64,000 bases of DNA. It comes from Chiloscyllium plagiosum. Taxonomy: Eukaryota. The stretch is taken from positions 89,341,645 through 89,405,644 of the forward strand of contig NC_057718.1 in the NCBI RefSeq assembly GCF_004010195.1, read 5' to 3'. This document shows, piece by piece, positions 4,243 to 59,335 of this stretch; position 1 is the stretch's first letter; each line of letters opens with the position of its first letter. Below the pieces are notes generated by a model. It was given only the letters and a program-made list of their open reading frames with translations. It had not been told where the DNA came from and ran no database searches. Position numbers and translations under genes: made by a program.

Positions 4243-4392
4243 AAAGTTAAAAAAAAATCACACAACACCAGGACCTGACGAAGGAGCAGTGCTCCAAAAG
4301 CGTGTACTTTCAAAAACACCTGTTGGACTATAACCTGGCGTTGCGTGGTTTTTAACTTCGTCCATCCCAGTCCCACACTAGCACCTCCACAT
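4243..4392. mobile_element. Penelope-derived short insert, family 2 (degenerate hammerhead core at 4275-4300)
   Basis: cctgacgaaggagcagtgctccaaaag plus the tgttggactataacctgg tail shared with 12135 and 43843. Confidence 0.65.
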
Positions 4393-4490
4393 TGTGGATG
4401 GTGACATGCTTTGGAAAGCACTCCCTGAGGGGTGAGTTACTCACTGCTGGATTCCTAGCTTGACTTGTCGTTGTTATATTTTTAATATTA

Positions 4491-4712
4491 AGAGAAAGTG
4501 AGGACTGCAGATGTTGGAGATCAGAGTCAAAAGGTGTGGTGCTGGAAAAGCGCAGCCAGTCAGGCAACATTCGAGGAGCAGGAGAATTGACGTTTCGAGC
4601 ATAAGCTCTTTATCCATTCCTGATGAAGGGCTTATGCTCGAAACATCGATTCTCTTGCTCCTTGGATGCTGCCTGACCGGCTGTGCTTTTCCAGCACCAC
4701 ACCTTTTAGACT
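4491..4712. mobile_element. Penelope-derived inverted-repeat insert, family 1
   Basis: Arms symmetric about ~4615; core ctgatgaagggcttatgctcgaaac at 4620-4644. Confidence 0.75.
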
Positions 4713-5147
4713 ATTTATAATACTAATCTGGTTCAGTTTCTGGTCAATGGCAACCCTCAGGATGTCAATGGTGGGGGATTCACTGATGCTTGTGCAATTG
4801 AGTGCCATGGGGCAGTGGGTGGATCCTTTGATTGATGGAAATGGTCATGAAAGCCACTACATAAACATCTTTCTTCAGTGTTCACTTCGCACTTCCACCT
4901 CTAAAACTATCCTCCATGAAGTTTGCTGGGTGCTATCCAAATACAGATTCTCATTGTTCGGTGGACTAAGCCCAAGGGAAGATGGAATGGCAAGGTATAA
5001 TGGCCCAACTTGACAAGCTGGGAGATACAAACAAATACACAAGGGGACATCAGCCCTGAAGTCTCATCCTTGGGCAGGAGAGGGGTCTCTGACGTTTAGA
5101 ATTTTGAAGTGATGACCAACACATTCATCAAAAGCTAAGAGCTAGGC

Positions 5148-5275
5148 TGAAGTGGGTACTGCAGATGCTGGAGATTACAGTCTAGATTAGAGTGGTGCTA
5201 CAAAAGCACAGCCGGTCAGACAGTATCCGAGGAGCAGGAAAATCGACGTTTTGGGCAAATGCCCTTCATCAGGAA
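5148..5275 (-). mobile_element. Penelope-derived single arm, family 1
   Basis: Reverse complement reads cctgatgaagggcatttgcccaaaacgtcga followed by the family-1 tail. Confidence 0.7.
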
Positions 5276-5369
5276 GAGCTGGCAACTGTGCGTGAGGTTT
5301 AAGCGAACTACAAGATTGCACCATTAAAGATGTTCCCAATCATCCACACTCTTCAACACTGAAACACAG

Positions 5370-6787
5370 TGAAACCTCTGAAGAGCAGGTGTGCATGCTG
5401 GAACAGATAGAGATAGAGGAAGCTGGTGTGCTGAAAATTTTGTCAAACATTAAGATTGACAAGTCGCCAGGCCCACACCAGATTTGTCCTCGGCTGCTTT
5501 GGGAAACGGGAAATGCGATTCCTTCGCCACTTGCGAAGACCTTCGCATCCTCGCTCTCCACCGGAGTCGTACCGGAGGACTGGAGGGAGGCAAATGTAAT
5601 TCCTCTCTTCAAGAAAGGAAATAGGGAAATCCCCGACAATTACAGACCAGTCAGTCTCACGTCTGTCGTCTGCAAGGTGTTAGAAAGGATTCTGAGGGAT
5701 AGGATTTATGACCACCTGGGAGAGCATAGCTTGATTAAATGCAGTCAACACGGCTTTGTGAGGGGCAGGTCATATCTCACAAGCCTTATCGAGTTCTTTG
5801 AGGATGTGACTAGAAACGTTGATGAGGGTTGAGCTGTGGATATGGTGTATATGGACTTCAGCAAGGCATTTGATAAGGTTCCCCATGGTAGGCTCATTCA
5901 GAATATCAGGAGGAATGGGATTCAGGGGAACATAGCTGTCTGGATACAGAATTGGCTGGTCAACAGAAGACAGCAAGTGGTAGTAGAAGGAAAATATTCT
6001 GCCTGGAAGTCTGTGGTGAGTGGTGTTCCACAAGGCTCTGTCCTTGGGCCTCTACTGTCTGTACTTTTTATTAATGACTTGGATGAGGGGATTGAAGGAT
6101 GGGTCAGCAAGTTTGCAGACGACACAAAGGTTGGAGGTGTCGTTGATAGTATAGAGGGCTGTTGTAGGCTGCAGCAGGACATTGACAGGATGCAGAGATG
6201 GGCTGAGAGGTGGCAGATGGAGTTCAACCTGGATAAATGCGAGGTGATGCATTTNNNNNNNNNNNNNNNNNNNNNNNNNNNNNNNNNNNNNNNNNNNNNN
6301 NNNNNNNNNNNNNNNNNNNNNNNNNNNNNNNNNNNNNNNNNNNNNNNNNNNNNNNNNNNNNNNNNNNNNNNNNNNNNNNNNNNNNNNNNNNNNNNNNNNN
6401 NNNNNNNNNNNNNNNNNNNNNNNNNNNNNNNNNNNNNNNNNNNNNNNNNNNNNNNNNNNNNNNNNNNNNNNNNNNNNNNNNNNNNNGAGTCGATAGCCAG
6501 AGACTATTTCCCAGGGCAGAAATGGCTAACACGAGGGGTCATAGTTTTAAGTTGGTTGGAGGAAGGTATAGAGGGGATGTCAGAGGCGGGTTCTTTACAC
6601 AGAGAGTTGTGAGAGCATGGAATGCGTTGCCAGCAGCAGTTGTGGAAGCAAGGTCATTGGGGACATTTCAGAGACTGCTGGACATGCATATGGTCACAGA
6701 AATATGAGGGTGCATACATGAGGATCAATGGTCTGCACAACATTGTGGGCTGAAGGGCCTGTTCTATGCTGTACTGTTCTATGTTCT
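5370..6787 (+). mobile_element. CR1 LINE, 5'-truncated: RT domain to 3' end, in-frame stop at 5830-5832
   Basis: Motifs KSPGP, NYRPVSLTS, DFSKAFDKVPH, GVPQGSVLGP, KFADD; tail (gttctat)n; spans an assembly gap. Confidence 0.93.
6255..6485. other. Assembly gap (N run)
   Basis: 231 N. Confidence 1.
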
Positions 6788-7203
6788 ACGCTCTGGAAAA
6801 CGGGAGGTACAGTTGATGACAATACCTCACATGTGACAGAATAGTGGCCAATGAAGTACTGACAAACAAAGTAATGGCGGCGTAAGTGTGTTATTTTCAC
6901 TTGTGTCAGGCTGAATGTGGCAATTACTGCCCATTCCCTGTTTCCAAGGGAGCATGAAGAATCACCGAGGTAACAGGGAACCACACTGAGCTTCCCTTTC
7001 CTGAGGGACAACAGCTGTACGTTGAGGACAATCCAACCATTTCACACCACCCTTTTCTGCTGCCAGGTCACAAATTAGTGAATTCAGCTCACCACGATGG
7101 GTTTTGAGCTCGCTATGCTGCACATGGAGCACTGGAACCACAAGGCTAGAATTAATGTATCTAATTAATCATTAGAGGAGAGCATTGATGAGAAGACCCT
7201 CAT

Positions 7204-7606
7204 TCTGATCGCTGTCTTCCTGGGGGGGTCGGGGAAGCAAGACGGGCTGTCCTAGAGGTGGTCGGAAGGTGTGTCAAGGCAGACTGAGACCTGGAAGGGG
7301 CATGGGGTGGGCCGAGAGCCGGATGGGGTGTAGGGGCAGCCTGCCTTAGCGTGGCCAGAAGGTGGGAGGGATGTTGGCTTGCTGGGGGTCGGTATTTTAT
7401 GCATTTTTTAAAAATGTAATTGGACTGTCTTATATGTACTTACTGTTTTGTGATGATGGAAGGCGGGATTTGAGGTTTGTCCTCATTTCCTGAAAACTGG
7501 TTGAACGGAAGGACCTGGGGCCTGGCTTTGCCACTTCTCTGTATACAGCTGTTAATGTTATGTGTTTTGTAGACTGTATATTGTTTAATAAAATTTTAAA
7601 AATGAA
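7204..7606 (+). mobile_element. L1-like 5'-truncated retroposed 3' end with 11-bp TSD
   Basis: TSD aagaccctcat at 7193-7203 and 7607-7617; G-rich then T-rich body; AATAAA at 7587-7592; A-rich end. Confidence 0.65.
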
Positions 7607-7967
7607 AAGACCCTCATACATGGGAAATTCTGGGGACCACCCCCAAAGCAGTCAAAGAGCAGTGAGACCATTGCACAGCAGGCCAAGGGACTGTGTCGAA
7701 CAGGAAATTCAATATTAATAGATGACGCTTAGATAATAAAGTGACTCCCACTTTTCTCAGGTATCACAACTACAAAATAGGACTACACGACAAAAGCTTC
7801 AGATGTATTGACGCAGCTTCATCTATCAAATAATGCACAAGGACATAAACAGCTCATGCAGAGCAGCAATTGTAAGCCAGGATAAGGAGAAAGCATCAAA
7901 TGTCAGCTGTGACAGAGCAAGTGAGAGACAGTGGGAAAAGTACAACAAGCAGCCAGGGCAGAGCGAG

Positions 7968-8770
7968 GGATCCTGTGATTGGAGGGACAGACAGCAGGGG
8001 AGAAAGGGATCCTGTGATTAGCGGGACAAAGAGTATGGGAGAAAGGGAACCTGTGATTGGAGGAGCAAAGAGTGCGGGAGAAAACGAACCTGTGATTGGA
8101 GGAGCAGAGAGTTCGGGAGAGTGGGAACATGTGATTGGAGGAGCAGAGAGTCCACAAGAGAGGGAACCAGGGATTAGAGGAGCAGGGAGGATGGGAGACA
8201 CAGAACCTGTGTTTGGAGGAGCAGAGAGCGCAAGAGAGCGGTAGCCTGTAATTGGAGGAGCAGAGAGTGCAGGAGAGAGGGAACCTGTGATTGGAGAAGC
8301 AGAGAGTGCAGGAGAGAGGGAACCTGTGATTGGAGAAGCAGAGAGTGCAGGAGAGAGGGAACCTGTGATTGGAGAAGCAGAGAGTGCAGGAGAGAGGGAA
8401 CCTGTGATTGGAGAAGCAGAGAGTGCAGGAGAGAGGGAACCTGTGATTGGAGAAGCAGAGAGTGCAGGAGAGAGGGAACCTGTGATTGGAGAAGCAGAGA
8501 GTGCAGGAGAGAGGGAACCTGTGATTGGAGAAGCAGAGAGTGCAGGAGAGAGGGAACCTGTGATTGGAGAAGCAGAGAGTGCAGGAGAGAGGGAACCTGT
8601 GATTGGAGAAGCAGAGAGTGCAGGAGAGAGGGAACCTGTGATTGGAGGAGCAGAGTGTGCAGGAGAGAGGGAACCTGTGATTGGAGGAGCAGAGAGTGTA
8701 GGAGAGAGGGAACCTGTGATTGGAGGAGCAGAGAGTACAGGAGAGAGAGAAAACCTGTGATTGGAGGAGC
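7968..8770. repeat. 39-bp minisatellite (ggaacctgtgattggagaagcagagagtgcaggagagag), about 20 copies
   Basis: Near-perfect units ~8280-8630, degenerate toward 7968. Confidence 0.97.
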
Positions 8771-8794
8771 AGCAGCACTCAAGGAAATCCTTAC

Positions 8795-8928
8795 CTTGTA
8801 TTAACCTCATTGAGATTAGTTGTCAACAAGCTGCTGTCTGGTGGGTGGCACTCCTTCAGGAGTTGATTGGACACAGAGTCAAACTTCTGCAGGCTGCCTT
8901 CCGACTTATCCAGTTCCTCTTGGAGGTT
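8795..8928 (-). CDS. SYNE1: Nesprin-1 coding exon (NLQEELDKSEGSLQKF...LNEVNT-S)
   Basis: ttacag acceptor, gtaagg donor, 134 nt phase 0-2. Confidence 0.93.
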
Positions 8929-9319
8929 CTGTAAAATAAAAGGTGGACCCAACTTTGAAGAAGGTATGTATGTGCCATTTGGGGAACAGAAATACGGTGG
9001 CACTTGGATGTTTAACCGCAGAGGTGTACTCTGATCCTTTGTGGTTGGTACAACTGAAGCAATGGAACCACCTTGGACTGAGGCTGAGCTGAGCTAAGCT
9101 AAAGCCCCATCACAAGTGAAGGTGACAATTATTGGCCATTCCCTGTTTCAAGTGAACCAGGGGGAGTGGGGAGGGATGGCACATGAAGGAGAAAGGTGAA
9201 GAGACAGATTCTGAGAGGAGAGGTAGAGAAAAAGAGGACGAGGTTGAGTTTACATAGCACCTTCCAGGACGGTGGTGAATCATAAAAAGCTTTCAAGTCA
9301 ACAAAGTACAGCAGATATT

Positions 9320-9611
9320 TGGATTACAGTGTGGAAACAGGCCCTTCGGCCCAACAAGTCCACGGAAGCACAACCCACCCATACCCCTACATTTACCCCT
9401 TTACCTAACACTACGGGCAATTTAGCATGGCCAATTCACCTAACCTGCACATCTTTGGACTGTGGGAGGAAACTGGAGCACCCGGAGGAAACTCACGCAG
9501 ACACGGGGAGAATGTGCAAACTCCACGCAGTCAGTCGCCTGAGTTGGGAATTGAACCCAGGTCTCTGGCGCTGTGAGGCAGCAGTGCTAACCACTGTGCC
9601 ACCGTGCCGCC
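9320..9611 (-). mobile_element. HE1-like V-SINE with 15-bp TSD
   Basis: TSD caacaaagtacagca at 9299-9313 and 9612-9626. Confidence 0.9.
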
Positions 9612-11019
9612 CAACAAAGTACAGCAAACATTTTATTAACCAGCTCCTATTGGACCAGGAGTGTGCTGGTTGATTAAATATTCTGGTTGATTAAGAGGTC
9701 CACCAAATCAATGGAAAAACACACACTAAGTAACATAAACGTAATGAAGGGGGTATACACCTTACAGCATAAATCACTTAAATAATAATGCATCTTCGCC
9801 TTAAATAAAACCTATCGGCAGAGAGCCTCCTGATCGCACCCTTCAAATGACCACGTGGACATGGTGAAGATCCTAAAAATACATTAAACATCCGGTATTT
9901 CCAGTATATCATTTTTTGCCAGTTTATCAAGAGGGCCAGTTCATAAGGTGCCTGTTAAAACAAAGTTGGCTGCACTGTCAAAGTGTCATTATAACTTCAA
10001 TATGGACACGCAGCAGTCGATTTGTGCGCCTAATGAACAGGACACCGGTGGAGCGATAAATATTGGAAGCGGCATTGGATAGAGCGCCCCTGCTGGCTGG
10101 CCATGGATCTGAGCTGGGAGGGCAGAGTCACCTCAAGGGAAAGATGGCACATCACCACCTCAGTACTGCACGGTCACTGCTAACCTGAGATTGGCTGCGC
10201 TGGAGTGGAATTTCAACTCACAAACTACAGAGTCTGAGGTCAGTCTCGGGCAACACAGCAGAGGGGTGAAAAGCACAGTGCTGCCAGGCAGGAAGACAGA
10301 AAATACACAATAGGCTATTAACAGTGAAACTCTGGAAGAGGTTCAGTGAAGATCAATGATATGGAGGATCACACAAACACAGGCAGTCACCAGAACAAGA
10401 TGGAGACAGAACTTCAAAAGCAAGGAAAGGATTTTGTAAATAAATCACCACTGAATGAGCAGGCAGGATGGATCGTGATGATGGGAGTATGGGTGAAATT
10501 ATAGCTTAAATTAGTTTAAATTTAAAATTTCTTCCATTTAATTTGGGTGTCACTGGCAAGGCTAACATTTGTTGCTTGTCCCCAACTGCTAAGTGGCTTG
10601 TGAGGCCATTCCATACCGGATAAGCAAGACACAACCACATTACTACAGGTCTGGAATCCAATGTTGCGTGAGGACTGCAGATTTCCTTCCCCAGAGAATA
10701 CCCTTCCACCTTTCTCATCCCCTAATAAAAATAAACAAACCTCAGTCGCGCTCAGAGTTGAAACCCAGCAGCATCAGATTTTTTGTTTTGGAAGGGTGTG
10801 GGAGCAGAAGGGCAGGAGTGTCCCAGGTTTCCGATCCTCCGTGTGAGGAAAGTACTTTCGGATTTTGCTCCAGGAGAGATATTTAAAATTGTGGCACCTG
10901 CTGATTGGCTTTAAGGAAGGCAAATAGTGTTCTGGGGAGGATCAGAGAGGTAATTCCAGGGCTTCTGTACTACCTTTGTAAGATGGGGCAACAGCCCCTG
11001 CTACATGACTTCAGAGGTT

Positions 11020-11244
11020 AGAGTGTGTGGTGCTAGAAAAGCACAGCAGGCCAGGCAGCATCCAAGGAGCAGGAGAATCAACATTTCGGGCATTAGTCCT
11101 TAATCAGGAATGAGGCCTGATGAAGGGCTTAGGCCCGAAATGTCGACTCTCCTGTTCCGCGGATGCTGCCTGACCTGCTGTGCTTTTCCAGCACCACACT
11201 CTAAACTCTGGTCTCCAGCATCTGCTGTCCTCACTTTCTCTAGA
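11020..11244. mobile_element. Penelope-derived inverted-repeat insert, family 1, 12-bp TSD
   Basis: TSD acttcagaggtt at 11008-11019 and 11245-11256; core ctgatgaagggcttaggcccgaaa at 11117-11140. Confidence 0.8.
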
Positions 11245-11589
11245 ACTTCAGAGGTTGTAAGATTCCTCAATACAAAACACCACGCAGCAAATACAAGGGC
11301 GTATAAATGGGGTAGCGGTCAAGGGCTATGGGGACCAGGAAAAATTGTCATATGTGAATAATAAAAGCAATGGAGTAGACCAGGTGGGCTGAATGGGCAC
11401 AAATTCTCTGTAATTTCAGGTCCTCAACAAGCGCCACCACAAACGACACTGTTCACCAGGGTTTCAGTGGCAAAAGGGAATGAGTTCATTTGTCTGCAAG
11501 GGAGACAGCGTCCACCTGATCCACCTCAGGCAACCTTCATTAAATGTTACCAAATACCTGCAAGGACAGCGCAAAGTTCAAGCACTTAC

Positions 11590-11760
11590 CTGTAGGTTGT
11601 CTACCTGGATTTTCACAGCTTCCAGACAGCCAGTCAGCAAACGGAAACGTGAAAGGGAGTAGCGGGCGTCCATCAGGTGGCCATTAATGTCCTCATAGGC
11701 TGCCTTGTAAATATTCCACTGGTCCAGCAACGACTGGAGAGTGATCTTCAACTGGCCAAC
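11590..11760 (-). CDS. SYNE1: Nesprin-1 coding exon (VGQLKITLQSLLDQW...QVDNLQ)
   Basis: ttccag acceptor, gtaagt donor, 171 nt phase 0-0. Confidence 0.94.
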
Positions 11761-12134
11761 CTGGAACATGGCAAGGTCGGACAGTGAACGTGTGCTCTCT
11801 TGGATTGGGAAAGCCCACATGTCTGGAAAAGTCAAATAAGAGGTGGCCTGGCCTTTCTTGGTTGTGACTAACAGCATCTATTCCCTGCCTTATCGTGAAA
11901 ATAAACATGTTGTGAAGATAAACAAATGCTACAAAGTACCAGAACAAATATGATGAGACAATGGTCTCCTCAGTATTGTAAGATTACAAGGGAATGGTGG
12001 TTAAATCTTGTAGCAGCCACTGGCATGGCTTTGGCGCAGAAAGCTCTGCCTTGAACACGACACTTTATCTCATAAAAAGAAATGTTTGTTCTTGGGATCC
12101 TGATCACTTTTACTACTCAACCCTGGTTTCTGAG

Positions 12135-12329
12135 TTAAACATCACACAACACCAGGTTATAGTCCAACAGGTTTAATTGGAAGCACCAGCTTTCGGAGCG
12201 TCGCTCCTTCATCAGGTAGTTGTGATGAAGGAGCAGCGCTTCAAAAGCTAGCGCTTCCAATTAAACCTGTTGGACTATAACCCGGTGTTGTGTGATTGTT
12301 AAATTTGTACAACACCGGCATCTCCAAAT
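12135..12329. mobile_element. Penelope-derived inverted-repeat insert, family 2, 13-bp TSD
   Basis: TSD cctggtttctgag at 12122-12134 and 12330-12342; arms symmetric about ~12218. Confidence 0.8.
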
Positions 12330-13155
12330 CCTGGTTTCTGAGAGTCCATTAGGAGTTCATTGCATATTACAGGACTGGGATCGCACGTAGACCAGGTGTG
12401 TATGGGTGAGATAGAGACCTTTCTCTGAAGGGCATCACCCATCCAATTGGCCTTTTACTACAAGCCAATGGCTTTCAAGACCTGGTGCCCTGCTGTAAGT
12501 AATCAGCTTTGTTGAATTGGAAGGATTTGAGGAACTTCTTCTGATCCACTGTTAGAGCTTTCAAGCTGAAATGCCCCAAGACATGAGAGACATCTAATTC
12601 CACCTGATGGAGTGAGTATGTCAGATCAATGGGGTACAATGGTAGCCAGTGCCTTTATACTGTCATCCAAGTGCATGGTGCTGTCATTATCCAAACTTCC
12701 ACAAAAGGTTGCTGATAATTCATTCATTTGCTTATCTCTTATTGATTTTTTTTAAATGGGTATGGTGTTGCTGGCAAGACTAAAGTGCTCTAGCCTCCCC
12801 CAATTGCCCTTGAAGTGCCATTGCAAAGGGAAGTTTGAGAGTCAATCACTTTGCTGAGGATCTGGAGTCACAGGCTGAAGGCCAAACCAAGTAACAACAC
12901 CCTTCCCGGATGAGGTCTGTGAACTAGATGGGAATTTTGCAACAATTAGCTTTCATGGTCACCACATTTTCCAGAGTTTTGTTCATTAAGATTTAATTTC
13001 CCCCAACGGCCATGGTGGGGGGTTGAACCCACGTCCAGACAGCACTGCCCTGGGCCTCAGGATGAGCAGCCCAAATGACATTACCGTCATCTCACTGTCT
13101 CCCCATTTCTGCACAGAATCAAAGTATGAATGAGAGGAATCAGGTGAAGTAACTA

Positions 13156-13710
13156 CACGGCCATCCACTGTCACACGGCCATCCACAGTCACACGGCCAT
13201 CCACAGTCACACGGCCATCCACAGTCACACGGCCATCCACCGTCACACGGCCATCCACAGTCACACAGCCATCCACAGTCACACAGCCATCCACAGTCAC
13301 ACAGCCGTCCACCGTCACACGGCCGTCCACCGTCACACGGCCGTCCACCGTCACACGGCCGTCCACCGTCACACGGCCGTCCACCGTCACACGGCCGTCC
13401 ACCGTCACACGGCCGTCCACCGTCACACGGCCGTCCACCGTCACACGGCCGTCCACCGTCACACGGCCGTCCACCGTCACACGGCCGTCCACCGTCACAC
13501 GGCCGTCCACCGTCACACGGCCGTCCACCGTCACACGGCCATCCACCGTCACACGGCCACCCACCGTCTCACGGCCATCCACCGTCTCACGGCCATCCAC
13601 CGTCTCACAGCCATCCACCGTCTCACAGCCATCCACCGTCTCACAGCCATCCACCGTCATCACAGCCATCCGTCATCACAGCCATCCACCAACCCACAGC
13701 CATCCACCAT
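13156..13710. repeat. 18-bp minisatellite (cacacggccgtccaccgt), about 30 copies
   Basis: Direct tandem units, homogeneous centre, degenerate edges. Confidence 0.97.
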
Positions 13711-13865
13711 CAATCCAAGAACCAGCCTGTATCAGTCACCCTCCATCAGTCATTGTCTGTCATTCATCAGTTATCCCCCAGACAAGCAGACAGTCATCCT
13801 CCATTATCCAATCAGTCATCCTGCACCAATCAAACGGCTGGCCTCCATCACTGAGGTATTATTAC

Positions 13866-14021
13866 CAAGTGGTCCAGATGAGCCCAGGAATGATTAAGTT
13901 CTCGGAGTGTTTCCATAACGTTGCTGGAAGCCTCCTCTTTCTTGTTCTGTATCAGCACCAGGCCACTTTTCTCAACTTTCTCCACTTCCTTCTCTTTCAC
14001 TCGGATAATATCTTCCAGTTC
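13866..14021 (-). CDS. SYNE1: Nesprin-1 coding exon (ELEDIIRVKEKEVEK...WAHLDHL)
   Basis: tcttag acceptor, gtaata donor, 156 nt phase 0-0. Confidence 0.93.
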
Positions 14022-14329
14022 CTAAGAAATAAAATTATGTAAGTTTGCCTCACAGAGATAGACTGATAGTTATGAGCTGCACGAACCCCCTCCCACATTA
14101 TTGATTTCACCCTGCCCCATCTATACATCCTCCATACCCTCCGCTCTCACATCTCATTCAAGATATTTTCTCATCAACCTAGTCAGAGATGTTATCACAC
14201 ACCATTGGAACGGGTGAGGTTTGAACCTGGGTCTCCTGTGTCAGAGGTACGCTCACTACTACTGCACCAGAAGAGCCCCACGTCCTGTTCTATGTTACAT
14301 GCTTTAATCATTCCATGTGGTAGCAAGAT

Positions 14330-15427: not shown

Positions 15428-15655
15428 AATAAGGCAAAGAGCTGTGAGATCAGAAACAAGAACAGAAATTGCTGGAGAAACTCAGCAGGTTATGCAGCAT
15501 CTGTGGAGAGAACGCAGGAGTTCACATTTTGAGACCAGTGACCCTTCTACTGAACACTTCTGAGGAGGGGTCACCGGACTCAAAGCGTGGACTCTGACTT
15601 CTCTCCACAGAGGCTGCCAGACCTGCTGAGTTTCTCCAGCTATTTCCATTTTCTG
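15428..15655. mobile_element. Inverted-repeat insert, family 3 (probably Penelope-derived)
   Basis: Arms gctggagaaactcagcagg / cctgctgagtttctccagc; degenerate ctgagga...stem core near centre. Confidence 0.65.
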
Positions 15656-16255: not shown

Positions 16256-16465
16256 AAAAAAACAGTAGAACTGCAGATGCTGGAAATCAGAAACAAAAAC
16301 AGAAATTGCTGGAAAAACACACAGGTCTGTCAGCATCTGGAGAGAGAAATCTGGGTTAATGTTTCTGAGGAAGGGTCACTGGATCCGAAACGGCAACTCT
16401 GATTTCTCTCCATAGATGCTGCCAGACCTGCTGAGTTTTTTTTTCAGCAATTTCTATTTCTGTTA
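16256..16465. mobile_element. Inverted-repeat insert, family 3, with hammerhead-like core at 16365-16390
   Basis: ctgaggaagggtcactggatccgaaac; arms match 15428-15655. Confidence 0.7.
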
Positions 16466-17223
16466 CTCTTAGTTTCACATTTTTAAGCCTGTTATTATTC
16501 AGGTGAAGTTGTGTTCCACCCATCCTTCCTCAGATGCTCAGAACTGAATGCAGTAATCTAAATGTGGCCGAAATGCCACTCCTTCAGGTAACGGACAATG
16601 TTCCATTCGCATTTTCAATTATGTTTTGTACCTATGCATCAGCCTTTCACAATTCCCGTGCCTAGACACCTAAACCCGTCTGCTTCTTCACAGTTCCCAG
16701 CTGCTCACCGTTTGGAAGTTAATCTCATCAAACCTTCAGGTCGGAAGCAGATTCCCACAGCAAACCAAATTTGCCACTATTTACCAACCTCACCTTATCC
16801 ATCAAAGTCTCTGTCACAATCTGCTGCCATCCACATTAGTTACTGTGCCACCAAGTCAAAGTAGCACCAGCAAATACCTTCGGGAGGAGTTTGGTGTCAC
16901 AGCCACATGAGATGCCTCTGATAACGTCCACATAGTGAAATCATTTGTTCTCATTGGTAAGGTTGGAACATCCAGTTGGTTTTTTTCCCCCCCTAAAACA
17001 GGGAACAGGAGAAGACCAACAAGTCCGCTGAACAAGCCCCACGCTGACGAACCCTGAAGGATCAGGAATGGTCACTTGGACAGCCTCCCCGACAGCAGCG
17101 TGATCACCCATGGCAAATAATGAACCGCGAAAACCAGGGCAATAAAAAGGCAAGGTGCTCTGGGAGTCTCTCCATGGAGGTGGAAACCAGTTCAGGGGCA
17201 GTGTGTGAAAACCTCTCCGTTAC

Positions 17224-17400
17224 CTGCTCAGTAATGTGTCCTTGCAGCAGTTGCCACCTCCTGTTCATTATTCCAAGGCGCTCAGCGAAATCAGTTTTGT
17301 CACTGCGCTTACTCTCCACGTCATGGCTACTGATCTGCAGTACTGACTGGTTCACAAAGTCCACCGTCAACTGCTTACATGCCAGGTCAATCTTGAAAGC
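17224..17400 (-). CDS. SYNE1: Nesprin-1 coding exon (AFKIDLACKQLTVDFVNQS...GHITEQ)
   Basis: tcacag acceptor, gtaacg donor, 177 nt phase 0-0. Confidence 0.94.
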
Positions 17401-17427
17401 CTGTGAAGGACGAATACATTAGCATAA

Positions 17428-19277: not shown

Positions 19278-19697
19278 TAAGGTTGGCTTGAAACCTACGC
19301 TGACTGCTCATTATACTGTTTCTCATTTCTCGATGTCTGTCTAACCTCTCTTTCAGCAGTGTTTCCAATATTTCATCTCACTGATGTTAAGCTGTGGTAA
19401 CAATCTGTTCTCCATCTTAAAAATACAAGTGACAACGATCCACTAATTGGCTGACACGTCACCAAGTTTTAAACAAAGTTTTAGATCTGAACAGTAAACA
19501 CCAGCTATATCTTCCCTGATTCGCTTAAAATAAATGTGGTTGCTATGCAGAGCAGAGATTTTGACCATTTTAGTTTATTCATTAACCTTTTTTTATTTTA
19601 AGTGTACTTGCATTATTCATATCATCATTAAATAAATAGCAAAGCAATATAATTGTTTGATAGTTTTGCAATCTCTTTCTGGTTACCTGTGGTATCA

Positions 19698-20925: not shown

Positions 20926-21239
20926 CCAGTTTTCATTGATGTGTCAATCACATATTTTCATCATCTTGTTTTATATTGTTTGTTACCTTAACTTAAATTG
21001 TTTTTTATTTCTCTAATCTTTTCGCACCATCTCTGATCATGTACTCTTCAGTTATTCATATATTTACTGAATGTCTCTTTCCTCATCCTTATGCCTATAT
21101 TCAATGATGAAGGCTCAGCAACAGTTAGCCGTTCTTTCCTTTCAGTGGAACATACGTTCCTGAACTCTGTTGAACATTGTATTAGATGTTTCACATTGTT
21201 GTTCTATATTGCTGTTTATCCCCTTTTGTTTTCCCAAAG

Positions 21240-24280: not shown

Positions 24281-24587
24281 CTGGGAAAGGAACCGAGTCA
24301 GTAGACGATTTGGAAAGCTGCTCACGCACTGCTGCTAAACCAGTCCATTATTAAAAGCACTAGTCATGTGCAATAATTAAATGGGAAAACAAAGCCTGTT
24401 TAAAACATGCATTAGATTAGAATCATGCAGCACAAAAGGATGTCATTTGGCATATTGCTTTTTTCTTATTTGTTAAATGCTAGGCCAATATTTATGACTC
24501 ATCCCATTGGGGGAATCTAAGAGTCAACCACATTACTGTGGGCCTGGAGTCACACAGAGGCCAGACCAGCTAAGGACGGCAGAGTTA

Positions 24588-25015
24588 GCTCTGAAGAAGG
24601 GAGAGTGGACTCGGAACATTAACTCTGTTTTTCTCTCTACAGATGCTGCCAGACCTGCTGAGTTTCTCCATCAGAACTCCTGCATCTTTGTTTTAGAATT
24701 TGCAAACTGGATGGGCTTTGATAACAATCGATCGTAGTTTGGATAAGCCGGCTTTAAAAACAGCAGCTGCTGGGGAAGCTCAGCAGGTCTGGCAGCATCT
24801 GCGGGAAAAAGCAGAGTGAACGTTTCGAGTCTCAGAGCTCGACAAAGCTTTTGACACTGTGAAACACTGGATGACAGCGTGGATGACAAAGCTTTTCACT
24901 GTGCCTCAGTGCACGCGGCAATAAATTCAATTCAACTCAACTCATCTGTCAGACCTGCTGAGCTTCTCCAGCAACGTCTGCTTTTGCTCCACATTTCCGG
25001 CATCTTGCAGTTCAT
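24588..25015. mobile_element. Cluster of family-3 insert fragments in both orientations
   Basis: gatgctgccagacctgctgag motif on + at ~24642 and partly at ~24946, on - at ~24778. Confidence 0.6.
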
Positions 25016-25229
25016 TGTTTCAATTTAATTCCAGTTTCTTTCTCTTTTAAATTGAATCCAAGTTTCACCAGGGTGGGATTCAAACCCATGTCCCCAGCAC
25101 ATGACCCTGGGATGATTGGTTGAGTAACATTCCCATTGTGCCACCGCCTCCCCTGTGCTGTGTTGCTCCAGCTCTTTGGGAAGAGCTTCCTGCTAATTCA
25201 CACTGTCCCTGTAGTGCGGCAGATTTTGC

Positions 25230-25594: not shown

Positions 25595-25802
25595 GAGAAA
25601 ATGAGGTCTGCAGATGCTGGAGATCAGAGATGGAAATGTGTTGCTGGAGAAGCGCAGCAGGTCAGGCAGCATCTAGGGAACAGGAGAATCAACGTTTCGG
25701 GCATTAGCCCTTCTTCAGGAAGGGCTAATGCCCGAAACGTCGATTCTCCTGTTCCCTAGATGCTGCCTGACCTGCTGCGCTTCTCCAGCAACACATTTCC
25801 AT
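25595..25802. mobile_element. Young Penelope-derived inverted-repeat insert, family 1, 14-15 bp TSD
   Basis: 85-bp arms 25629-25713 and 25719-25803 with one mismatch; TSD (c)gctatacaaatgca. Confidence 0.85.
25688..25721 (-). ncRNA. Minimal type I hammerhead ribozyme motif
   Basis: CUGAAGA-A-GGGC-UAAU-GCCC-GAAACGUU; palindromic ACGU at stem III. Confidence 0.55.
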
Positions 25803-35858: not shown

Positions 35859-35994
35859 GGGTAAAAACAAGGACAACAGATGCTGGAAACCAGATTCTGG
35901 ATTAGAGTGGTGCTGGAAAAGCACAGCAGTTCAGGCAGCTTCCGAGGAGCAGGATGCTGCCTGAACTGCTGTGCTTTTCCAGCACCACTCTAAT
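35859..35994. mobile_element. Penelope-derived inverted-repeat insert, family 1, centre deleted, 13-bp TSD
   Basis: TSD ccacctcagttct at 35846-35858 and 35995-36007; ~40-bp matching arms. Confidence 0.8.
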
Positions 35995-42203: not shown

Positions 42204-42478
42204 TTCAGTGAGACCCGCAATCACATACAGCTGACAAAACCAACCAAACCAACACACAACATGCAGACATAACCAGATAATGTGACACTTCTAGACGGAA
42301 TCAGTTTGCAGAGAAAACAATAACATAGGATGGTGTAAAACCAACTCCCGAATTCAGCACAGGCTGTAATGATCCCCCTTCCCCATTCTAAACTCTCCGT
42401 TTGGAAGGTAAAGGGCTTCAGCCAATGGTGCAGCAGTGATCTTTCCCAGAGAAATGTCTGCAGTAAGAGTGTCCAGAC

Positions 42479-43016: not shown

Positions 43017-43457
43017 TTACATGAACTCCGGCATCTCAGGTCAAGGGCAGAGGACTTTGGAGAGTTTTTTCCATCCTTTTCCTTGCACACAGACATATGA
43101 ATGAAAACGAGACCAGCCTTCAATAGCTACACCTTTGTTCAGCCTTATTGGGAAAGTCCGACGGATTAATTTTACTTGTTTTGGGTAGAGAAGCAGATAT
43201 GATGCCGTGTACACATGTGTACTGTTCCAACACAGAGCCAGGCTGATACTGGCAGCACTGCCCAAGAGGAGGGATCGGTTTCTCTGTGCCCAAATTCTCG
43301 AGAGTGTTTGTGGGACCAAAGGGCACGATCTCAGAGGAAGGGATTGCCCATTTAAGACAGAAATGAGGAGCAATGTCTTCTTTCAGAGGCAAGTGAATCT
43401 ATCGATGGCTTTACTGCAGAGGGCTGTTGAGGCTGGGTCATCAAGTATATTCAAGAT

Positions 43458-43661
43458 TTTAGTGAGTTTTGAGAAGATTTGTGGCTCAGGTTGAAGTTCT
43501 GGATGTAGGTTTGCTCGCTGAGCTGGAAGGTTCATTTCCAGACATTTCGTCACCCTACTAGGTAACATCTTCAGTGGGCCTCTGGGCGGAAGATGTTACC
43601 TAGTAGGGTGATGAAAGTCTGGAAATGAACCTTCCAGCTCAGCGAGCAAACCTACATCCTG
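43458..43661. mobile_element. Penelope-derived inverted-repeat insert, family 4, 10-bp TSD
   Basis: Arms 43501-43572 and ~43589-43659; TSD tattcaagat at 43448-43457 and 43662-43671. Confidence 0.8.
43538..43577 (-). ncRNA. Minimal type I hammerhead ribozyme motif (family 4)
   Basis: CCA-CUGAAGA-U-GUUACC-uaguag-GGUGAC-GAAAUGUC-UGG; stems I and II pair. Confidence 0.6.
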
Positions 43662-43842
43662 TATTCAAGATATATAGGTTTTTTATCAGTAAGGGAATCA
43701 AGGATTATGGAGATAAGGCAGGAAAGTGGAGTTCAGGATGATCAAATCAGCCATGGCCTCACTAAATGGCAGAACACTAAACCCGATGGGCTGACTGGCT
43801 ATTTCTGCTCTCATATCTTACAGTCTTATAGTTTAGAGTATG

Positions 43843-43965
43843 TTATGGAGGTGCCGGTGTTGGACTGGGGCGGACAAAGTCAGAAGTCACACTACACCAG
43901 GTTTTAGTCCAACGGGGTTTATTTGAAATCACAAGCTTTCGGAGCGCTGCTCCTTCATCAGGTGA
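43843..43965 (-). mobile_element. Penelope-derived single arm, family 2
   Basis: Same tail as 12135-12329. Confidence 0.7.
43929..43965 (-). ncRNA. Best-preserved minimal type I hammerhead ribozyme motif, sense to SYNE1 pre-mRNA
   Basis: UCAC-CUGAUGA-A-GGAGC-AGC-GCUCC-GAAAGCUU-GUGA; 4-bp stem I, 5-bp stem II, palindromic AGCU. Confidence 0.65.
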
Positions 43966-44282
43966 AGGGGAGACGCAATCCCAAGATTTAAGCTGGGAAC
44001 CCATTCCCAGAAAGAACACTGAGCTCACTGAGAACTGGCTATTTGGAAAGGAAGGGTATATAAATGATAAGGGGGAGTAAGGTTACGGGGGACAGCATAA
44101 ATGGAAGTGCCATCTCCAAAATATCCTTCCCTATCGCAAGGTCTGAAATTCCCAAACGCTTTAAAGAAACAATTGCAATCATTAGAAGTTGTTTCCCTTC
44201 CCTCCAATATCTATCTTGGAATACCATCTTAAACCAAAAACAAGTGGAGTTGTAGCTTGATACAGACAGGAGTGATTCTTAC

Positions 44283-48719: not shown

Positions 48720-49262
48720 GAGGGGCGGGGAAGAGGGGCGGGAGGGGGAGGAGAGAGGGGGGAGAGGGNNNNNNNNNNNNNNNNNNNNNNNNNNNNNNNN
48801 NNNNNNNNNNNNNNNNNNNNNNNNNNNNNNNNNNNNNNNNNNNNNNNNNNNNNNNNNNNNNNNNNNNNNNNNNNNNNNNNNNNNNNNNNNNNNNNNNNNN
48901 NNNNNNNNNNNNNNNNNNNNNNNNNNNNNNNNNNNNNNNNNNNNNNNNNNNNNNNNNNNNNNNNNNNNNNNNNNNNNNNNNNNNNNNNNNNNNNNNNNNN
49001 NNNNNNNNNNNNNNNNNNNNNNNNNNNNNNNNNNNNNNNNNNNNNNNNNNNNATGAGCGGGGAGAGAGAGAGAGAGGCCAAGAGAGGTGGGGGGGAGAGA
49101 GAGAGAGAGACAGACAGACAGACAAAGAGTGCATGGGAGAAAGAGAGTGCATAGGAAGAAGAGAGAGAGGGAGGAAGAGACAGAGGGAGGAACAGAGAGA
49201 GAGGGAGGGAGGAAGAGGAGGAGACAGAGGGAGGACGAGAGAACAGGAGGGAGAGAGAAGAT
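48720..49262. repeat. GA-rich low-complexity tract containing an assembly gap (N 48769-49052)
   Basis: Purine-rich on + strand; fills most of a 638-bp intron. Confidence 0.9.
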
Positions 49263-52440: not shown

Positions 52441-52940
52441 NNNNNNNNNNNNNNNNNNNNNNNNNNNNNNNNNNNNNNNNNNNNNNNNNNNNNNNNNNNN
52501 NNNNNNNNNNNNNNNNNNNNNNNNNNNNNNNNNNNNNNNNNNNNNNNNNNNNNNNNNNNNNNNNNNNNNNNNNNNNNNNNNNNNNNNNNNNNNNNNNNNN
52601 NNNNNNNNNNNNNNNNNNNNNNNNNNNNNNNNNNNNNNNNNNNNNNNNNNNNNNNNNNNNNNNNNNNNNNNNNNNNNNNNNNNNNNNNNNNNNNNNNNNN
52701 NNNNNNNNNNNNNNNNNNNNNNNNNNNNNNNNNNNNNNNNNNNNNNNNNNNNNNNNNNNNNNNNNNNNNNNNNNNNNNNNNNNNNNNNNNNNNNNNNNNN
52801 NNNNNNNNNNNNNNNNNNNNNNNNNNNNNNNNNNNNNNNNNNNNNNNNNNNNNNNNNNNNNNNNNNNNNNNNNNNNNNNNNNNNNNNNNNNNNNNNNNNN
52901 NNNNNNNNNNNNNNNNNNNNNNNNNNNNNNNNNNNNNNNN
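52441..52940. other. Assembly gap (500 N)
   Basis: Exactly 500 N, probably a placeholder size. Confidence 1.
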
Positions 52941-54026: not shown

Positions 54027-54104
54027 CTTAAATCACACAGAAGAGAGGCACGCAGTTACTTGAAGGGACTATACTTTCAATTCTACCAAACCACACCTCA
54101 CTCT

Positions 54105-54416
54105 TTCGTTTCATTTCAACTCCCCCTCCCACTCTGCCGAGGACATGGAGGTCCTGGGCCTCCTTCACCGCCGTTCCCTCACCACCAGACGTCTGGAGGA
54201 AGAACGCCTCCTATCACCTTCATCCCCTCCCCCACTCACCTATTGTACTCTATGCCACTTTCTCCTCACCCCTACCCTCCTCTAGCTTATCTCTCCACGC
54301 TTCAGGCTCTCTGCCTTTATTCCTGATGAAGGGCTTTTGCCAGAAACGTCGATTTTGCTGCTCCTTGGATGCTGCCTGAACTGCTGTGCTCTTCCAGCAC
54401 CACTGATCCAGAATCC
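54105..54416 (+). mobile_element. Penelope-like element 3' fragment: endonuclease C-terminus, pyrimidine tract, hammerhead core and family-1 tail
   Basis: 54112-54210 encodes HFNSPSHSAEDMEVLGLLHRRSLTTRRLEEERL; ctgatgaagggcttttgccagaaacgtc starts at 54323. Confidence 0.78.
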
Positions 54417-55197: not shown

Positions 55198-55408
55198 GGA
55201 GAAAGTGAGGATGCTGGAGATCTGAGTCAAAAAGTGTGGTGCTGGAAAAGCACAGCCGGTCAGGCAGCAGCCAAGGAGCAGGAGAGTCGACGTTTCAAGC
55301 ATTAGCCCTACATCAGGCATGTTGTGATGGAAGAGTTTATGCTCGAAACGTTGACCCTCCTGCTGCTTGGATGCTGCCTGACCGGCTGTGCTTTTCCAGC
55401 ACCACACA
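55198..55408. mobile_element. Penelope-derived inverted-repeat insert, family 1
   Basis: Arms symmetric about ~55320; degenerate cores. Confidence 0.75.
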
Positions 55409-55904
55409 TCCCGAGATGTACCTCCTCAAACCCTTTGTCTATTTGAAATATCTCCATCCGATGGCCCTTCAACCTCCTGTTCTCGGGAAAACAGTCAAAT
55501 CTGTCGAATGGCTCTGGCTTCAGTGATGCAACTCATCAACCACGGCTCTGGAATTTGGTGGGCACACAGACCACTTCACAGGGGGCTGAGCTGATACCCC
55601 TCCCTGGCTCAGAACAAAGTCAGGAAATTCCACATCCGTGTTTCACAATATTAACATGACCGTTCTGTCCATGTGTGTTCCTGGCTCTCAATGACACAAC
55701 TGCCCCACTCCCTCATCAATGCCCCCATTATTCCACTCTGACATTGAACAGAGGCCAAAGCTTCCTGAAGATTGGATGTCGGAGGGGGTTTCTATGAGGA
55801 AGGGTAACCTGGCAACATGTATAAGAGCACCATGAAATATGGACTGGGAAAAGGTGACCTATCCACTTGCCTCATCATCTGCACAAAAAATAGAGAGAGA
55901 AGAG

Positions 55905-56325
55905 AAATTGCCACCCAGGTAAATAGTGCAGTGAAGAAGGCATATGGCGTACTGGCTTTTATTGGTAGAGGAATTGAGTTCCGGAGTCCTGAGGTCATGT
56001 TGCAGTTGTATAAGACTCTGGTGCGGCCACATCTGGAGTATTGTGTGCAGTTTTGGTCGCCATACTATAGGAAGGATGTGGAGGCACTGGAACGGGTGCA
56101 GAGGAGGTTTAAGGGGTAGGTTCTTTACTCAGCGATTCGTGAGTTCATGGAATGCCCTGTCAGTAGCAGTGGTGGACTCTCCCTCTTTATGGGCATTTAA
56201 GCGGGCATTGGATAGGCATATGGAGGATAGTGGGCTAGTGTAGGTTAGGTGGGCTTGGATCAGCGCAACATCGAGGGCCGAAGGGCCTGTACTGCGCTGT
56301 ATTCTTCTATGTTCTATGTTCTATG
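55905..56325 (+). mobile_element. CR1 3' fragment with internal deletion near 56110
   Basis: QLYKTLVRPHLEYCVQFWSP...VQRRF jumps straight to GRFFTQR. Confidence 0.9.
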
Positions 56326-56421
56326 GTTTGGATAAATTGTCTTCCTTTGTGGAATATTGCTGGGGTGAGCCCTCTGAGGGGTACAATACAGTTAGCGTGG
56401 GTACGCATGCAATGACCTTAC

Positions 56422-56613
56422 TTTGATACTGATACTTCTGTCCTGCAACATTTTCTGCAGCTCCACCAAGCTCCCCTTCAGATTCTGGAGCTTCTCGATC
56501 AGGTGCTCTGCTTGCTCCCTGGTCTGCGGCTTCCCTTCCAGGACGAGGTTCTCACTGTTCATGGAGAGCTCCGAAACGGACGCCACTTTCCGCTCGATCT
56601 CCACCAACATGTT
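56422..56613 (-). CDS. SYNE1: Nesprin-1 coding exon (NMLVEIERKV...DRSISIK)
   Basis: gacag acceptor, gtaagg donor, 192 nt phase 0-0. Confidence 0.92.
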
Positions 56614-57849
56614 CTGTCAAAGCATAAACAGCAAGATCAACTCAAATCATCTCCCAACACACACGTGTGCAAAAAAACAGATACATGTGTGTGCACGTGC
56701 ACATACGGACAGTTCTTCTGTAACATGATGGTTGGGTTCATGTGCATCCCCGCATGATAGAAACATCCCGCTTTAGAAACAGTGCTTAAAGTATTGGCGA
56801 TGTAATCACCTTACAGCCAACACAGGTTTTAAAAGTTTAGAAACTGTGTTCCCCAATTCGTCCATCACATTCAGTTAATATGTGTTAATGATGTGCATGC
56901 TATAGCAGAATGACCTGTACATACGTGTGCACACATACACAACGACACAGATCTGATTGATAACCTCCGCAAAAGCCTGTGTATTCATCCCACAAGTAGC
57001 TGCTATTTCGAACCTTCCTCCAAACACAGTTCAGTGAAACCTCTTAAAACACATTCATGCTTGCAAAGGCAGCCTGCTTCACAAAAGTTAGTTCACAGAT
57101 TACTGGCCGTGTCCTGGTCAATATTCATCCCTCAACCCAGCATGTAAAAGAGATTATCCAGAGAGCATACCTCTGGGATCCTGCGGCCCTCCAGTTGGCT
57201 GCTGTGGCTTTCTAAATCGCAAACGTGATTGCATTTCAAAAACGCCCAGAGGAAGCAATCTATCAAATCCAAGTTCATTATGAGCTGCAGCAGAATGCCC
57301 AGCTGGGAAAGGCTACAGCCAATGATAATGGTGACCTGCTCCTCAGGGCCAAATTCCAGCAAGAGAAAAGCACAACACTTCCCAACACCTCACTGACCGT
57401 TCCCCCCCTCACAGCTCACATTTGGTGACTACGCTAGAAGGCCATCAAAAATTCACAACAGCCCCAGCCTTATCTCAGTGCACTGGTAATCAGGCATTCG
57501 AGAGTGTTTCAGATGATCGGAGATTCAAGTCCCATTCCAGGCACTCAGTCACGAAATCTAGGATGATACTCTCAACAGACGGCTGCATTGCCAGAAGTAC
57601 CATTGTTTAGGCGAGCTGTTAAAACAGAGACCCACCTCCTTCCCAGGTGGGCTTCAAAGGCTCCAGGGCACCCACTAAAGAGCAGAAGACTTCTGCCAAG
57701 AGGCTCCAGGGTATCCTACATGACAAGATTGGCCACACAACTTGAAACCACTCCACTGATTGTCAAACTCTGCTGGGTGTGAACAGACATTCTGCTCGAA
57801 TCCAGTGCTGAAGAGACAGCAGCAGAACATTGAGCCAATCAGAATACGA

Positions 57850-59335
57850 TCAGGCTGAGTCAAAATGGTTTAGTGAAAGGGAAATAGTGCTTGACAAACC
57901 ATTAGGGTTCTGTGAGAATGTAACAAGCAGGGTAGATAGAAGAGAATCAGTCAGTGTTGTACCTGGATTTAGATGACCAAAAGGTATGTAATAAGGCAGG
58001 TCTAGAAAGGTTAGTACTTAAGGCAAAATCCTATAGTGTTGGGAAGATTGATCAGCATAGGGAGGGAACTGGCTGACTAATAGCAAGGTAGATAGACTGG
58101 GCAGGTAGGTTGGTTATATCGGTAGTAGATAAGTCATTTTTAGGATAGCAAGCTGTAACTTGTATCTGTTGCAGGGAACAGTGCTAGGGCCTCAACTATT
58201 TACAATTTGTATTCATGACTTGGATGAAGAGACAAACGGTACTGTAGCCAAATTTACTGATGAGACCAAAGATCAGTAAGAAAGCACAGTGAGAGGTCAC
58301 TGCACATGATCTGCAAAGGGACATAGGCAGGCTAAGTTGAGTGGATGAAAAAAGACAGCAGACGGAATTTAATGTGGGAAAGTGTGAAGTCATCCACTGT
58401 GGCAGGCCAAACTGAAAAGCAGATTATTATTTAAATAGAACAAAACCGTAGAATACCCTGGTACAAAGGGACCTGGTGTCATTCTCCATGGGTCCGATCA
58501 GGCAAGTACTGGAAGGAATTAAGAAAGCAACCTGAACGTTACCCTTTATTGCAAGCAGTTGGAGTATAAAAGTAGGGAAGTCTTGATGCAACTATACAGG
58601 GTACAATCGAGCTGAAAATGTGTTGCTGGAAAAGCGCAGCAGGTCAGGCAGCATCCAAGGAGCAGGAGAATCGATGTTTCGGGCATGAGCCCTTCTTCAA
58701 GAAACGTCGATTCTCCTGCTCCTTGGATGCTGCCTGACCTGCTGCACTTTTCCAGCAACACATTTTCAGCTCTGATCTCCAGCATCTGCAGTCCTCACTT
58801 CCTCCTCGGGTACAATCGAGACCTCACTTAGAGCAGAGTGTACAATTTTTGATCACCTTACTTAAGGAGTTAACATTCACTTGGCCAATTCATAGGGTGA
58901 GAGGTTTGTCTTATCAAAAGCAATTGAGCAGGTTGGGCCTAGGTTGGGCAATGGGCCTCATTGGAGTCTACAAGAATGAGGAGCTTCTTATTCAAATACG
59001 TAAGATCCTGAGGGAGCTTGTCAGGGAGCTGGGACAATATTTCCTCACGAGGGGAATTCTAGAATGAGGGGACACAGTTTCAAAAGAAGGGATTACCCAT
59101 TTAAGACAGAGTGAGAAGGAATTTCTTCTTTCTGAAGGTTGTTACTGTCTAGAATGTTCTGCCCAGCGAGCGGTGGAGGCCAGTGGATCATTGAAAGTAT
59201 TTAAGGTTGAAGTGGTCAGGTTTTTAATTGACAAGAAAGTGAGAAGTTAATGATGAACTTAAGAGCAGTGATGATCTCATTGACTGGTGTAGCAGGGCTG
59301 AATGACCCACTCGTGCTCCTGTTCCTTATATTCTT
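57850..59335 (+). mobile_element. Old degenerate CR1 RT region and 3' end
   Basis: Remnants of QGTVLGPQLFTI and AKFTDETK motifs with many stops. Confidence 0.75.
58612..58807. mobile_element. Penelope-derived inverted-repeat insert, family 1, 13-bp TSD, nested in CR1
   Basis: TSD gggtacaatcgag at 58599-58611 and 58808-58820. Confidence 0.82.

Follow-up and report, generated by a model that had tools for sequence, protein, structure and literature searches.

The window analysed here, a stretch of 64,000 bp of the genome of the shark Chiloscyllium plagiosum (NCBI RefSeq assembly GCF_004010195.1, contig NC_057718.1, positions 89,341,645 to 89,405,644 of the forward strand), contains a series of short, mostly palindromic inserts, many of which carry the core of a minimal hammerhead ribozyme. 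In this study, we found that these inserts are real and that they derive from Penelope-like elements, probably so in two of their four sequence families; in kind they are ordinary, a closely spaced group of minimal products of insertion. The window itself is vertebrate-like and rich in pieces of CR1-like long interspersed nuclear elements (LINEs) and in a repeat resembling a short interspersed nuclear element (SINE), and the nearest named relatives of its proteins come from carpet sharks. Comparison of the window with itself revealed repeats at all 15 loci listed by an initial annotation, which had described about 15 inserts of 120-230 bp, mostly inverted repeats. Eleven of the 15 are head-to-head palindromes, ten with a self-complementarity of 78-97% across 93-184 nt and one, at 4243, with an inverted arm of merely 30 nt; nine of the 11 measure 196-228 bp. 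Single arms are present at three loci (5148, 43843, and 54105), and three fragments (24585, plus strand; 24756, minus; 24946, plus) together make up the locus at 24588. The size range described does not hold for the copy at 54105, which is about 305 bp long and includes open reading frame (ORF) sequence.

Two features that the initial annotation had overlooked, a one-sided tail and target-site duplications, characterize these inserts. In all ten full palindromes, across all four sequence families, one arm is longer than the other by 27-43 nt at its outer 3' end, and among the 11 palindromes the tail lies on the left in seven and on the right in four. Perfect duplications enclose the whole unit at 43458 (10 bp), 11020 (12 bp; 11008-11019 and 11245-11256), 12135 (13 bp; 12122-12134 and 12330-12342), 35859 (13 bp), 58612 (13 bp; 58599-58611 and 58808-58820), and 25595 (15 bp; 25580-25594 and 25803-25817), and duplications of 11-15 bp with one or two mismatches do so at 4243 (11 bp, one mismatch; 4231-4241 and 4392-4402) and 4492 (15 bp, two mismatches). 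When 14 loci were tested (24588 was left out), six scored at least 10, all perfect over 10-15 bp, and eight scored at least 8, these belonging to families 1, 2, and 4, whereas swapped flanks gave 0 of 182 at a score of at least 9 and random sites 2 of 300 at a score of at least 10. Moreover, once the 58612 insert and one duplicate are removed, the motif residues of the host reverse transcriptase (RT) regain the spacing that a further two CR1-like RT fragments show elsewhere in the window. The long inverted repeats, and the fact that most copies have no coding capacity, could suggest miniature inverted-repeat transposable elements (MITEs) or relics of another kind of DNA transposon, in which a hammerhead-like motif arose by chance. 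The initial annotation had warned that a repeat annotator could make this mistake, and we agree that MITEs are excluded, since the duplications vary between 10 and 15 bp, rather than being short and fixed as for the terminal inverted repeats of a DNA transposon, and the arms are lopsided. The repeats are also non-terminal on the tail side, single arms exist, one copy is linked directly to an RT/GIY-YIG protein, and the hammerhead core is far more frequent than expected by chance, so that we assign virtually no weight to this explanation, which is already refuted for families 1 and 3.

Palindromes of family 1 lie at 4492..4711 (34-nt left tail; perfect core at 4620-4643, plus strand, with ACAU at stem III), 11020..11244 (right tail of about 42 nt; perfect core at 11117-11140, plus, AUGU), 25595..25802 (the youngest, at 97%; 35-nt left tail; complete hammerhead at 25695-25718, minus, with ACGU and U17), 35859..35994 (42-nt left tail; no hammerhead, both arms beginning downstream of the motif), 55198..55413 (36-nt left tail; both cores damaged; a 6-bp flanking repeat not above control), and 58612..58807 (38-nt right tail; inside a CR1-like RT fragment). 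The same family includes a single tailed arm at 5148..5275 on the minus strand, with a core at 5249-5272 that has lost G12 and a 7-bp flanking repeat not above control, and a longer, tail-less copy at 54108..54412 on the plus strand, in which a C-terminal GIY-YIG endonuclease fragment (54112-54207) is followed by a pyrimidine-rich 3' region; its hammerhead, at 54323-54346, has one broken stem II base pair. Family 2 is found at 4243..4391, where the 30-nt inverted arm (4243-4272) abuts a tailed plus-strand arm head to head (core at 4275-4299, plus, with one lesion), as a palindrome at 12135..12329 (27-nt right tail with a 10-nt deletion inside it; perfect core at 12191-12215, minus, with AGCU but G17), and as a single tailed arm on the minus strand at 43843..43967, which has a complete hammerhead at 43937-43961 (AGCU, U17) and AATAAA at 43918-43923, and for which no duplication was found; related RNAs are polyadenylated at about 43903-43905. 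Family 3 palindromes lie at 15428..15655 (37-nt left tail; both cores decayed; no duplication above control) and 16256..16469 (33-nt left tail; perfect core at 16365-16390, plus, ACGG; tailed arm beginning at GAAA), and the composite at 24585..25020 consists of three old family 3 fragments, 24585-24690 (plus), 24756-24840 (minus), and 24946-25020 (plus, tailed), the last two being head to head with a 105-nt spacer between them. The family 4 palindrome at 43458..43661 (97%) lies within a CR1-like LINE fragment and has a 43-nt left tail and a perfect core at 43545-43574 (minus, AUGU).

The way in which the two arms meet differs at every palindrome. Among the 11 centres none is shared, and they consist of overlaps of 1-3 nt, of fillers, or of arms that begin far apart; therefore, the mirror image was likely built anew at each insertion. 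The initial annotation had spoken of miniature derivatives, and as far as this implies a palindromic master that copies itself as a 200-bp unit it does not stand. Such a master would account for the similar sizes and for the single duplication that encloses each whole hairpin, and the distribution of tails between left and right is expected under either view, but with fillers and arm starts private to each locus we consider it very improbable. Instead, each insert likely arose in a single event of its own. Of 28 arms inspected by eye, 20 begin within -11 to +5 relative to C3 of the hammerhead, seven at +17 or later, and one far upstream. None of the 28 begins at the hammerhead cut site, the nearest starting about 5 nt beyond it, and cleavage by the ribozyme was thus rejected as the cause of the 5' ends. 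At the tail-less ends (11020, 25802, 35994, 58612, and 12135), the duplicated target often opens with 1-3 bases identical to those with which the missing tail would begin, and in the 11020 insert the match extends to 8 of 12 duplicated bases (by eye, without a control); this may reflect priming assisted by pairing.

The link to Penelope-like elements is provided by the long family 1 copy. Positions 54079-54207 match the C-terminus of a Chiloscyllium punctatum protein, P0002 (33 of 44 residues identical, search E 3.7e-11), which has RT and GIY-YIG Pfam matches, both below cut-off, and a precomputed PF26215 match, and the copy at 54108, which extends for about 215 nt on the upstream side of its hammerhead, there enters the frame that matches P0002. 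For P0008, a relative from Stegostoma, translation is predicted to continue across the 3' region and to reach the family 1 core (10 of 14 residues), a match that is weak alone (E 0.075) but lies at the expected position. When 120 proteins were compared with the translated window, Penelope coding sequence was found at 54079-54207 only (36 of 42 rows), the other six rows being weak or falling in the SINE-like repeat; Pfam did not recognize the 50-residue endonuclease fragment of the window. In P0002, RT and endonuclease are joined by a cysteine linker, and on this criterion, rather than from a tree, we take the protein to be probably Neptune-type. Such a linker is described as a mark of the Neptune and Nematis clades (PMC8557442). 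P0002 also gave 164 pattern matches and no confirmed one in metagenome contigs, and the family 1 core pattern was found in neither viral nor prokaryote contigs (0 and 0). Some ray gene models with host-gene names (P0006 and P0014) consist mostly of Penelope RT/endonuclease sequence, and are likely annotation contamination.

Family 1 and family 3 arms align with each other (at 75% across 69 nt with a pairwise E of about 1e-8, and at 88% across 34 nt with an E of 5e-9), and the downstream half and the tail are common to both, whereas families 2 and 4 have nothing in common except the core. Thus, what had been presented as four unrelated families are three lineages. The Penelope derivation that had been proposed for all of them is, at the level of sequence, established for family 1 by the endonuclease fragment upstream of its hammerhead and follows for family 3 from homology; for families 2 and 4 it is probable from their anatomy, family 2 being filed here on its core, tail, and duplication.

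The hammerhead motif itself was searched for with a strict pattern (CUGANGA, one further base, a stem II of at least 4 bp with G as first base, and GAAA) and with a relaxed version that tolerates at most one core mismatch. The window contains seven exact and 12 relaxed matches, every one inside the listed inserts, whereas the means over 40 order-3 Markov controls were 0.05 and 0.53, respectively. The seven perfect cores show the features of minimal type I hammerheads, namely CUGANGA and GAAA, the extra base, the G10.1-C11.1 pair, and stem II, and helix I of family 1 is short (about 2-4 bp). The four self-complementary stem II sequences described before (GGGC/GCCC, GGAGC/GCUCC, GGGUC/GAUCC, and GUUACC/GGUGAC) are as given, but the palindrome at 35859 has no hammerhead at either arm. 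The further statement that intact copies carry ACGU or AGCU at stem III fails: just three of the seven perfect cores do (25695-25718, 12191-12215, and 43937-43961), one of them with G17, and the other four have AUGU (two), ACAU (one), or ACGG (one). Two of 28 arms (25695-25718 and 43937-43961) retain the core together with a stem III palindrome that is exact and a permitted base at position 17, and two further arms have AUGU. Many of the lesions fall at CG pairs, which is the pattern that neutral decay would give. The partner arm is predicted to pair with the hammerhead in the palindromes, the predicted cost of freeing the core being 25-36 kcal/mol in five of six palindromes, 5.1 in the oldest, and 0.8 in a single arm. 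Since the cores are decayed and the hairpin is predicted to bury them, the insert copies are unlikely to be working ribozymes. Cleavage as a dimer was reportedly described by Lunse et al. in 2017. An Rfam search of the window returned no hammerhead among 22 matches at E of at most 5, and microRNA look-alikes were among its below-threshold offers.

Copies elsewhere were examined in two DNA sequencing runs from two related organisms, whose contigs were matched to positions 43400-44060 (661 bp) at 85% likeness. The matching contigs number 49,856 and 41,592, in agreement with the high copy number proposed by the initial annotation, and their summed depth, which is not a copy number, is about five orders above that of unique flank; the fall in depth beyond 43584 was not used as a count, as the compared stretch is without native upstream sequence there. 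Among the contig ends listed (24 of 1806), 437 and 437 in the two runs lie at the tail-less end of family 4 (43500) and 696 and 714 at the tail end of family 2 (43846), with unrelated flanks in both cases, and 854 and 822 lie just upstream of the family 2 core, at 43964 and 43967, with low agreement beyond. Among the joints listed (15 of 412), strand-switch joints from other loci pair 43965-43967 with 43891, 43892, 43902, or 43913; an exact empty allele of 43458 is absent from these 15, and the joints that skip 43458 derive from other copies of the host LINE. Among the variant rows listed (40 of 243), the motif is intact at the family level, with ACGU in 56-59% of depth in family 4 and A17 in 52-78% in family 2, and both partners of a family 4 stem I pair vary from C-G to U-A, in 35-39% and 47-49% of depth as counted from separate positions. 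One contig of the second organism spans 43940-44060 with five differences and has 28 letters inside the insert, below our 31-letter rule; it suggests that the family 2 insert at 43843 is common to both organisms.

RNA was represented by one poly(A) single-cell run of 150-nt reads, of which about 2% was read, with 2518 matching reads, which may come from several loci and from host or element transcripts. In 836 of these, a T run is joined to family 2 sequence at a place where the DNA runs continue without an A run, and 449 further reads end likewise. Because these joins occur where a genomic A run is lacking, family 2 has a used poly(A) site. It lies some 14 nt downstream of AATAAA or ATTAAA and some 30 nt beyond the cut site of the hammerhead, ahead of both 3' end sites. 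The polyadenylated reads cross the cut site and so represent uncut RNA; cut products would be too short for the library. Of the family 2 reads, 1242 (four rows) run on into four related upstream sequences, and some DNA contigs likewise carry a common upstream sequence. These data bear on the idea that the template is a separate, non-autonomous SINE-like RNA of 120 nt, transcribed from the inserts and mobilised in trans. The sharp 5' boundary and the very high copy number (about 50,000 and 42,000 contigs over 661 bp) would suit such an RNA, and Penelope ends are described as able to act in trans (PMC3846280). However, three unrelated lineages have this boundary in common, native upstream sequence is present in one family 1 copy and in many family 2 reads, and the anole Penelope protein required RNA past the tail, to +172, which the inserts do not contain (PMC11167929); we therefore regard this as quite improbable.

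We favour, at odds of roughly two to one, a scheme in which the inserts are 90-130-nt pieces of the terminal repeat (pLTR) of Penelope elements, and in which the hairpin is made at insertion by two RT events at one staggered cut; the pLTR identity is firm for family 1 and presumed for the other families. The element's GIY-YIG endonuclease would cut both strands 10-15 bp apart, the stagger being visible as the duplications. Each cut end would then prime copying of the RNA at either of two internal positions, which are separated by about 35-43 nt, and the use of two start sites would leave the tail on one arm only; the two fixed ends are evident in the inserts, and the priming is modelled on the anole element in vitro. 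Both cDNAs would stop short, in most cases on reaching the 5' side of the hammerhead, where the RNA likely begins; since the ends lie beyond the whole ribozyme, stalling of RT at the fold seems less likely than run-off from the RNA 5' end. The two cDNAs would finally be joined head to head through microhomology of 0-3 nt or a short filler, as the variety of junctions suggests, and the order of tailed arm, centre, and second arm within a single duplication is what twin priming followed by joining would produce. The ribozyme would be a passenger in this process, with arm ends off the cut site, decaying copies, and a core predicted to be buried by the hairpin in read-through RNA.

Alternatively, the mirror arm of a Penelope copy may arise by fold-back self-priming or by a template switch, without a second target-primed event. 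Overlaps of 1-3 nt are frequent at the centres (25586, 35859, 16256, and 58605), the arms of young inserts are 97-98% alike, and self-priming has been proposed for head-to-head palindromes of rotifer elements (PMC3846280). Against this, the end of the short arm lies at a second fixed position that abuts the duplication, fillers or arm starts 20-55 nt apart occur at several centres, and the two target strands are extended by the anole protein from one and the same pair of sites (PMC11167929), so that fold-back seems unlikely, though less so than a SINE-like template. Several results speak against twin priming or the identity of its substrate. Identity between sister arms does not separate twin priming from fold-back, and sister arms are clearly each other's closest relatives in two of six family 1 palindromes. 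The duplication is not above control in six of the 14 tested inserts, including all tested family 3 copies, and two of the three single arms are clearly without one. The family 3 arm starts were deduced from the junctions, for want of native upstream sequence as reference, and the upstream continuation of RNA reads and DNA contigs means that the 5' boundary is not absolute. In this window-scale survey, neither an empty allele nor a full-length element was seen. A protein link was not found for families 2 and 4 (family 2 was without a protein-level search), and the 37-codon peptide encoded by family 4 had no homologue in protein searches.

Beyond twin priming itself, a possible but decidedly tentative extension is that the shark Penelope messenger begins just upstream of the hammerhead and that, with the family 2 poly(A) site about 30 nt past the cut and before both RT start sites, this fixes the size of the stumps. 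Usable start sites would then exist only in the 5' repeat of a unit-length RNA, and twin priming would therefore run off the 5' end and yield 200-bp hairpins. If this is true, the stumps would record in the genome where the transcript starts, and tandem read-through would be needed for full-length transposition. In Drosophila, the Penelope element has an internal promoter within the terminal repeat (PMC2377424).

Several of these traits are already published as Penelope features, namely the inverted repeat with tail and duplication, and the minimal hammerheads. Insertion units of endonuclease-bearing Penelope-like elements have an inverted pLTR, an optional tail of 30-40 bp, and a short duplication (Arkhipova et al. 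2013, PMC3846280; Craig et al. 2021, PMC8557442). Like the shark inserts, they comprise a 5'-truncated inverted copy placed head to head, a tail at one end, a duplication around the whole unit (8-10 bp in the papers), overlap at the inverted junction, and solo pLTRs. Unlike them, the shark inserts lack the ORF and the second, direct pLTR, so that the unit is down to about 200 bp; they occur at a density of about one per 4 kb, and most of their arms go no further than the 5' side of the hammerhead. In metazoan Penelope-like elements, minimal hammerheads fall into several families within one genome, the majority being lone motifs left by truncated elements (Cervera and De la Pena 2014, PMC4209133), and they share with those found here the extra base between 9 and 10.1, the G10.1-C11.1 pair, the palindromic 15.2-16.2, and the short helix I. 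However, pairs on opposite strands are 100-700 bp apart in that study and abut here, and its counts of 4,000-9,000 per genome seem to be below the abundance suggested by the shark contigs; sharks are not named in its available portions. Non-LTR retrozymes (Cervera and De la Pena 2020, PMC7229834) are likewise short, non-coding, hammerhead-bearing, and of high copy number, but they are head-to-tail tandems with canonical type I motifs, whereas the shark inserts are dispersed, head to head, minimal, and linked to a Penelope ORF. With no tandem copy among 15 loci and no Rfam hammerhead match, identity with retrozymes was rejected.

The closest mechanistic parallel is the Poseidon element of Anolis carolinensis, in which both strands are cut and extended and two internal RT start sites bound the tail (Frangieh et al. 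2024, PMC11167929). Its ORF begins at stem II, the cut site follows 26 nt on, and RT starts at +111-118. The tailed arm of family 4 is an open frame of 37 codons, running from an ATG at 43568, where stem II likewise starts, to the tail end at +111, with the cut site 28 nt on. Uncut RNA is the template for the anole element in vitro, and the position of the shark arms off the cut site is in line with this (PMC11167929). The available portions of that study do not describe hairpin stumps or their joining, and family 1 is tied instead to a protein with a Neptune-type linker. Our literature search, with Dfam, Repbase, and subscription papers outside it, found no paper on shark Penelope hairpin stumps. 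What is added here are the arm starts near the core in 20 of 28 arms, the ORF-start geometry of family 4, and the polyadenylation of family 2 past an uncut hammerhead.

As for the rest of the window, the SINE-like family is about 300 bp long and present in about 15 copies (1914-2268, 2716-3028, 9324-9620, 41866-42206, and about 12 more), alongside many 3' fragments of CR1-like LINEs; a public protein model, P0005, begins within this repeat. A tandem array of a 28-bp G-rich unit, with more than 100 copies at about 89% identity, occupies 37783-41250, and further minisatellites or simple repeats, a source of long spurious ORFs, lie at 7900-8800, 13134-14039, 19678-20936, and 61036-61689. Three runs of N (6255-6486, 48769-49052, and 52441-52940) total 1016 bases. 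The minus strand contains exon-like frames of a long helical protein (e.g., 11581-11877, 17107-17418, 41419-41736, and 56392-56616), which may belong to a nesprin/SYNE-type spectrin-repeat gene; the inserts would then be intronic. Pfam recognized none of 11 host exon frames, nor did Atlas recognize the one frame compared with it.

In summary, these common shark repeats are to be filed in annotation as Penelope insertion products, not as MITEs or microRNA hairpins. Their interest lies in a test of the origin of the inverted arm and of the positions at which the RNA starts and ends. The literature cited here does not settle the origin of Penelope inverted repeats, and tens of thousands of minimal two-armed products that retain intact duplications are a data set on which twin priming can be set against fold-back and the start of the RNA examined. 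For the host, inserts of this kind would place many long double-stranded hairpins in pre-mRNA, to which family 2 adds a working poly(A) signal.

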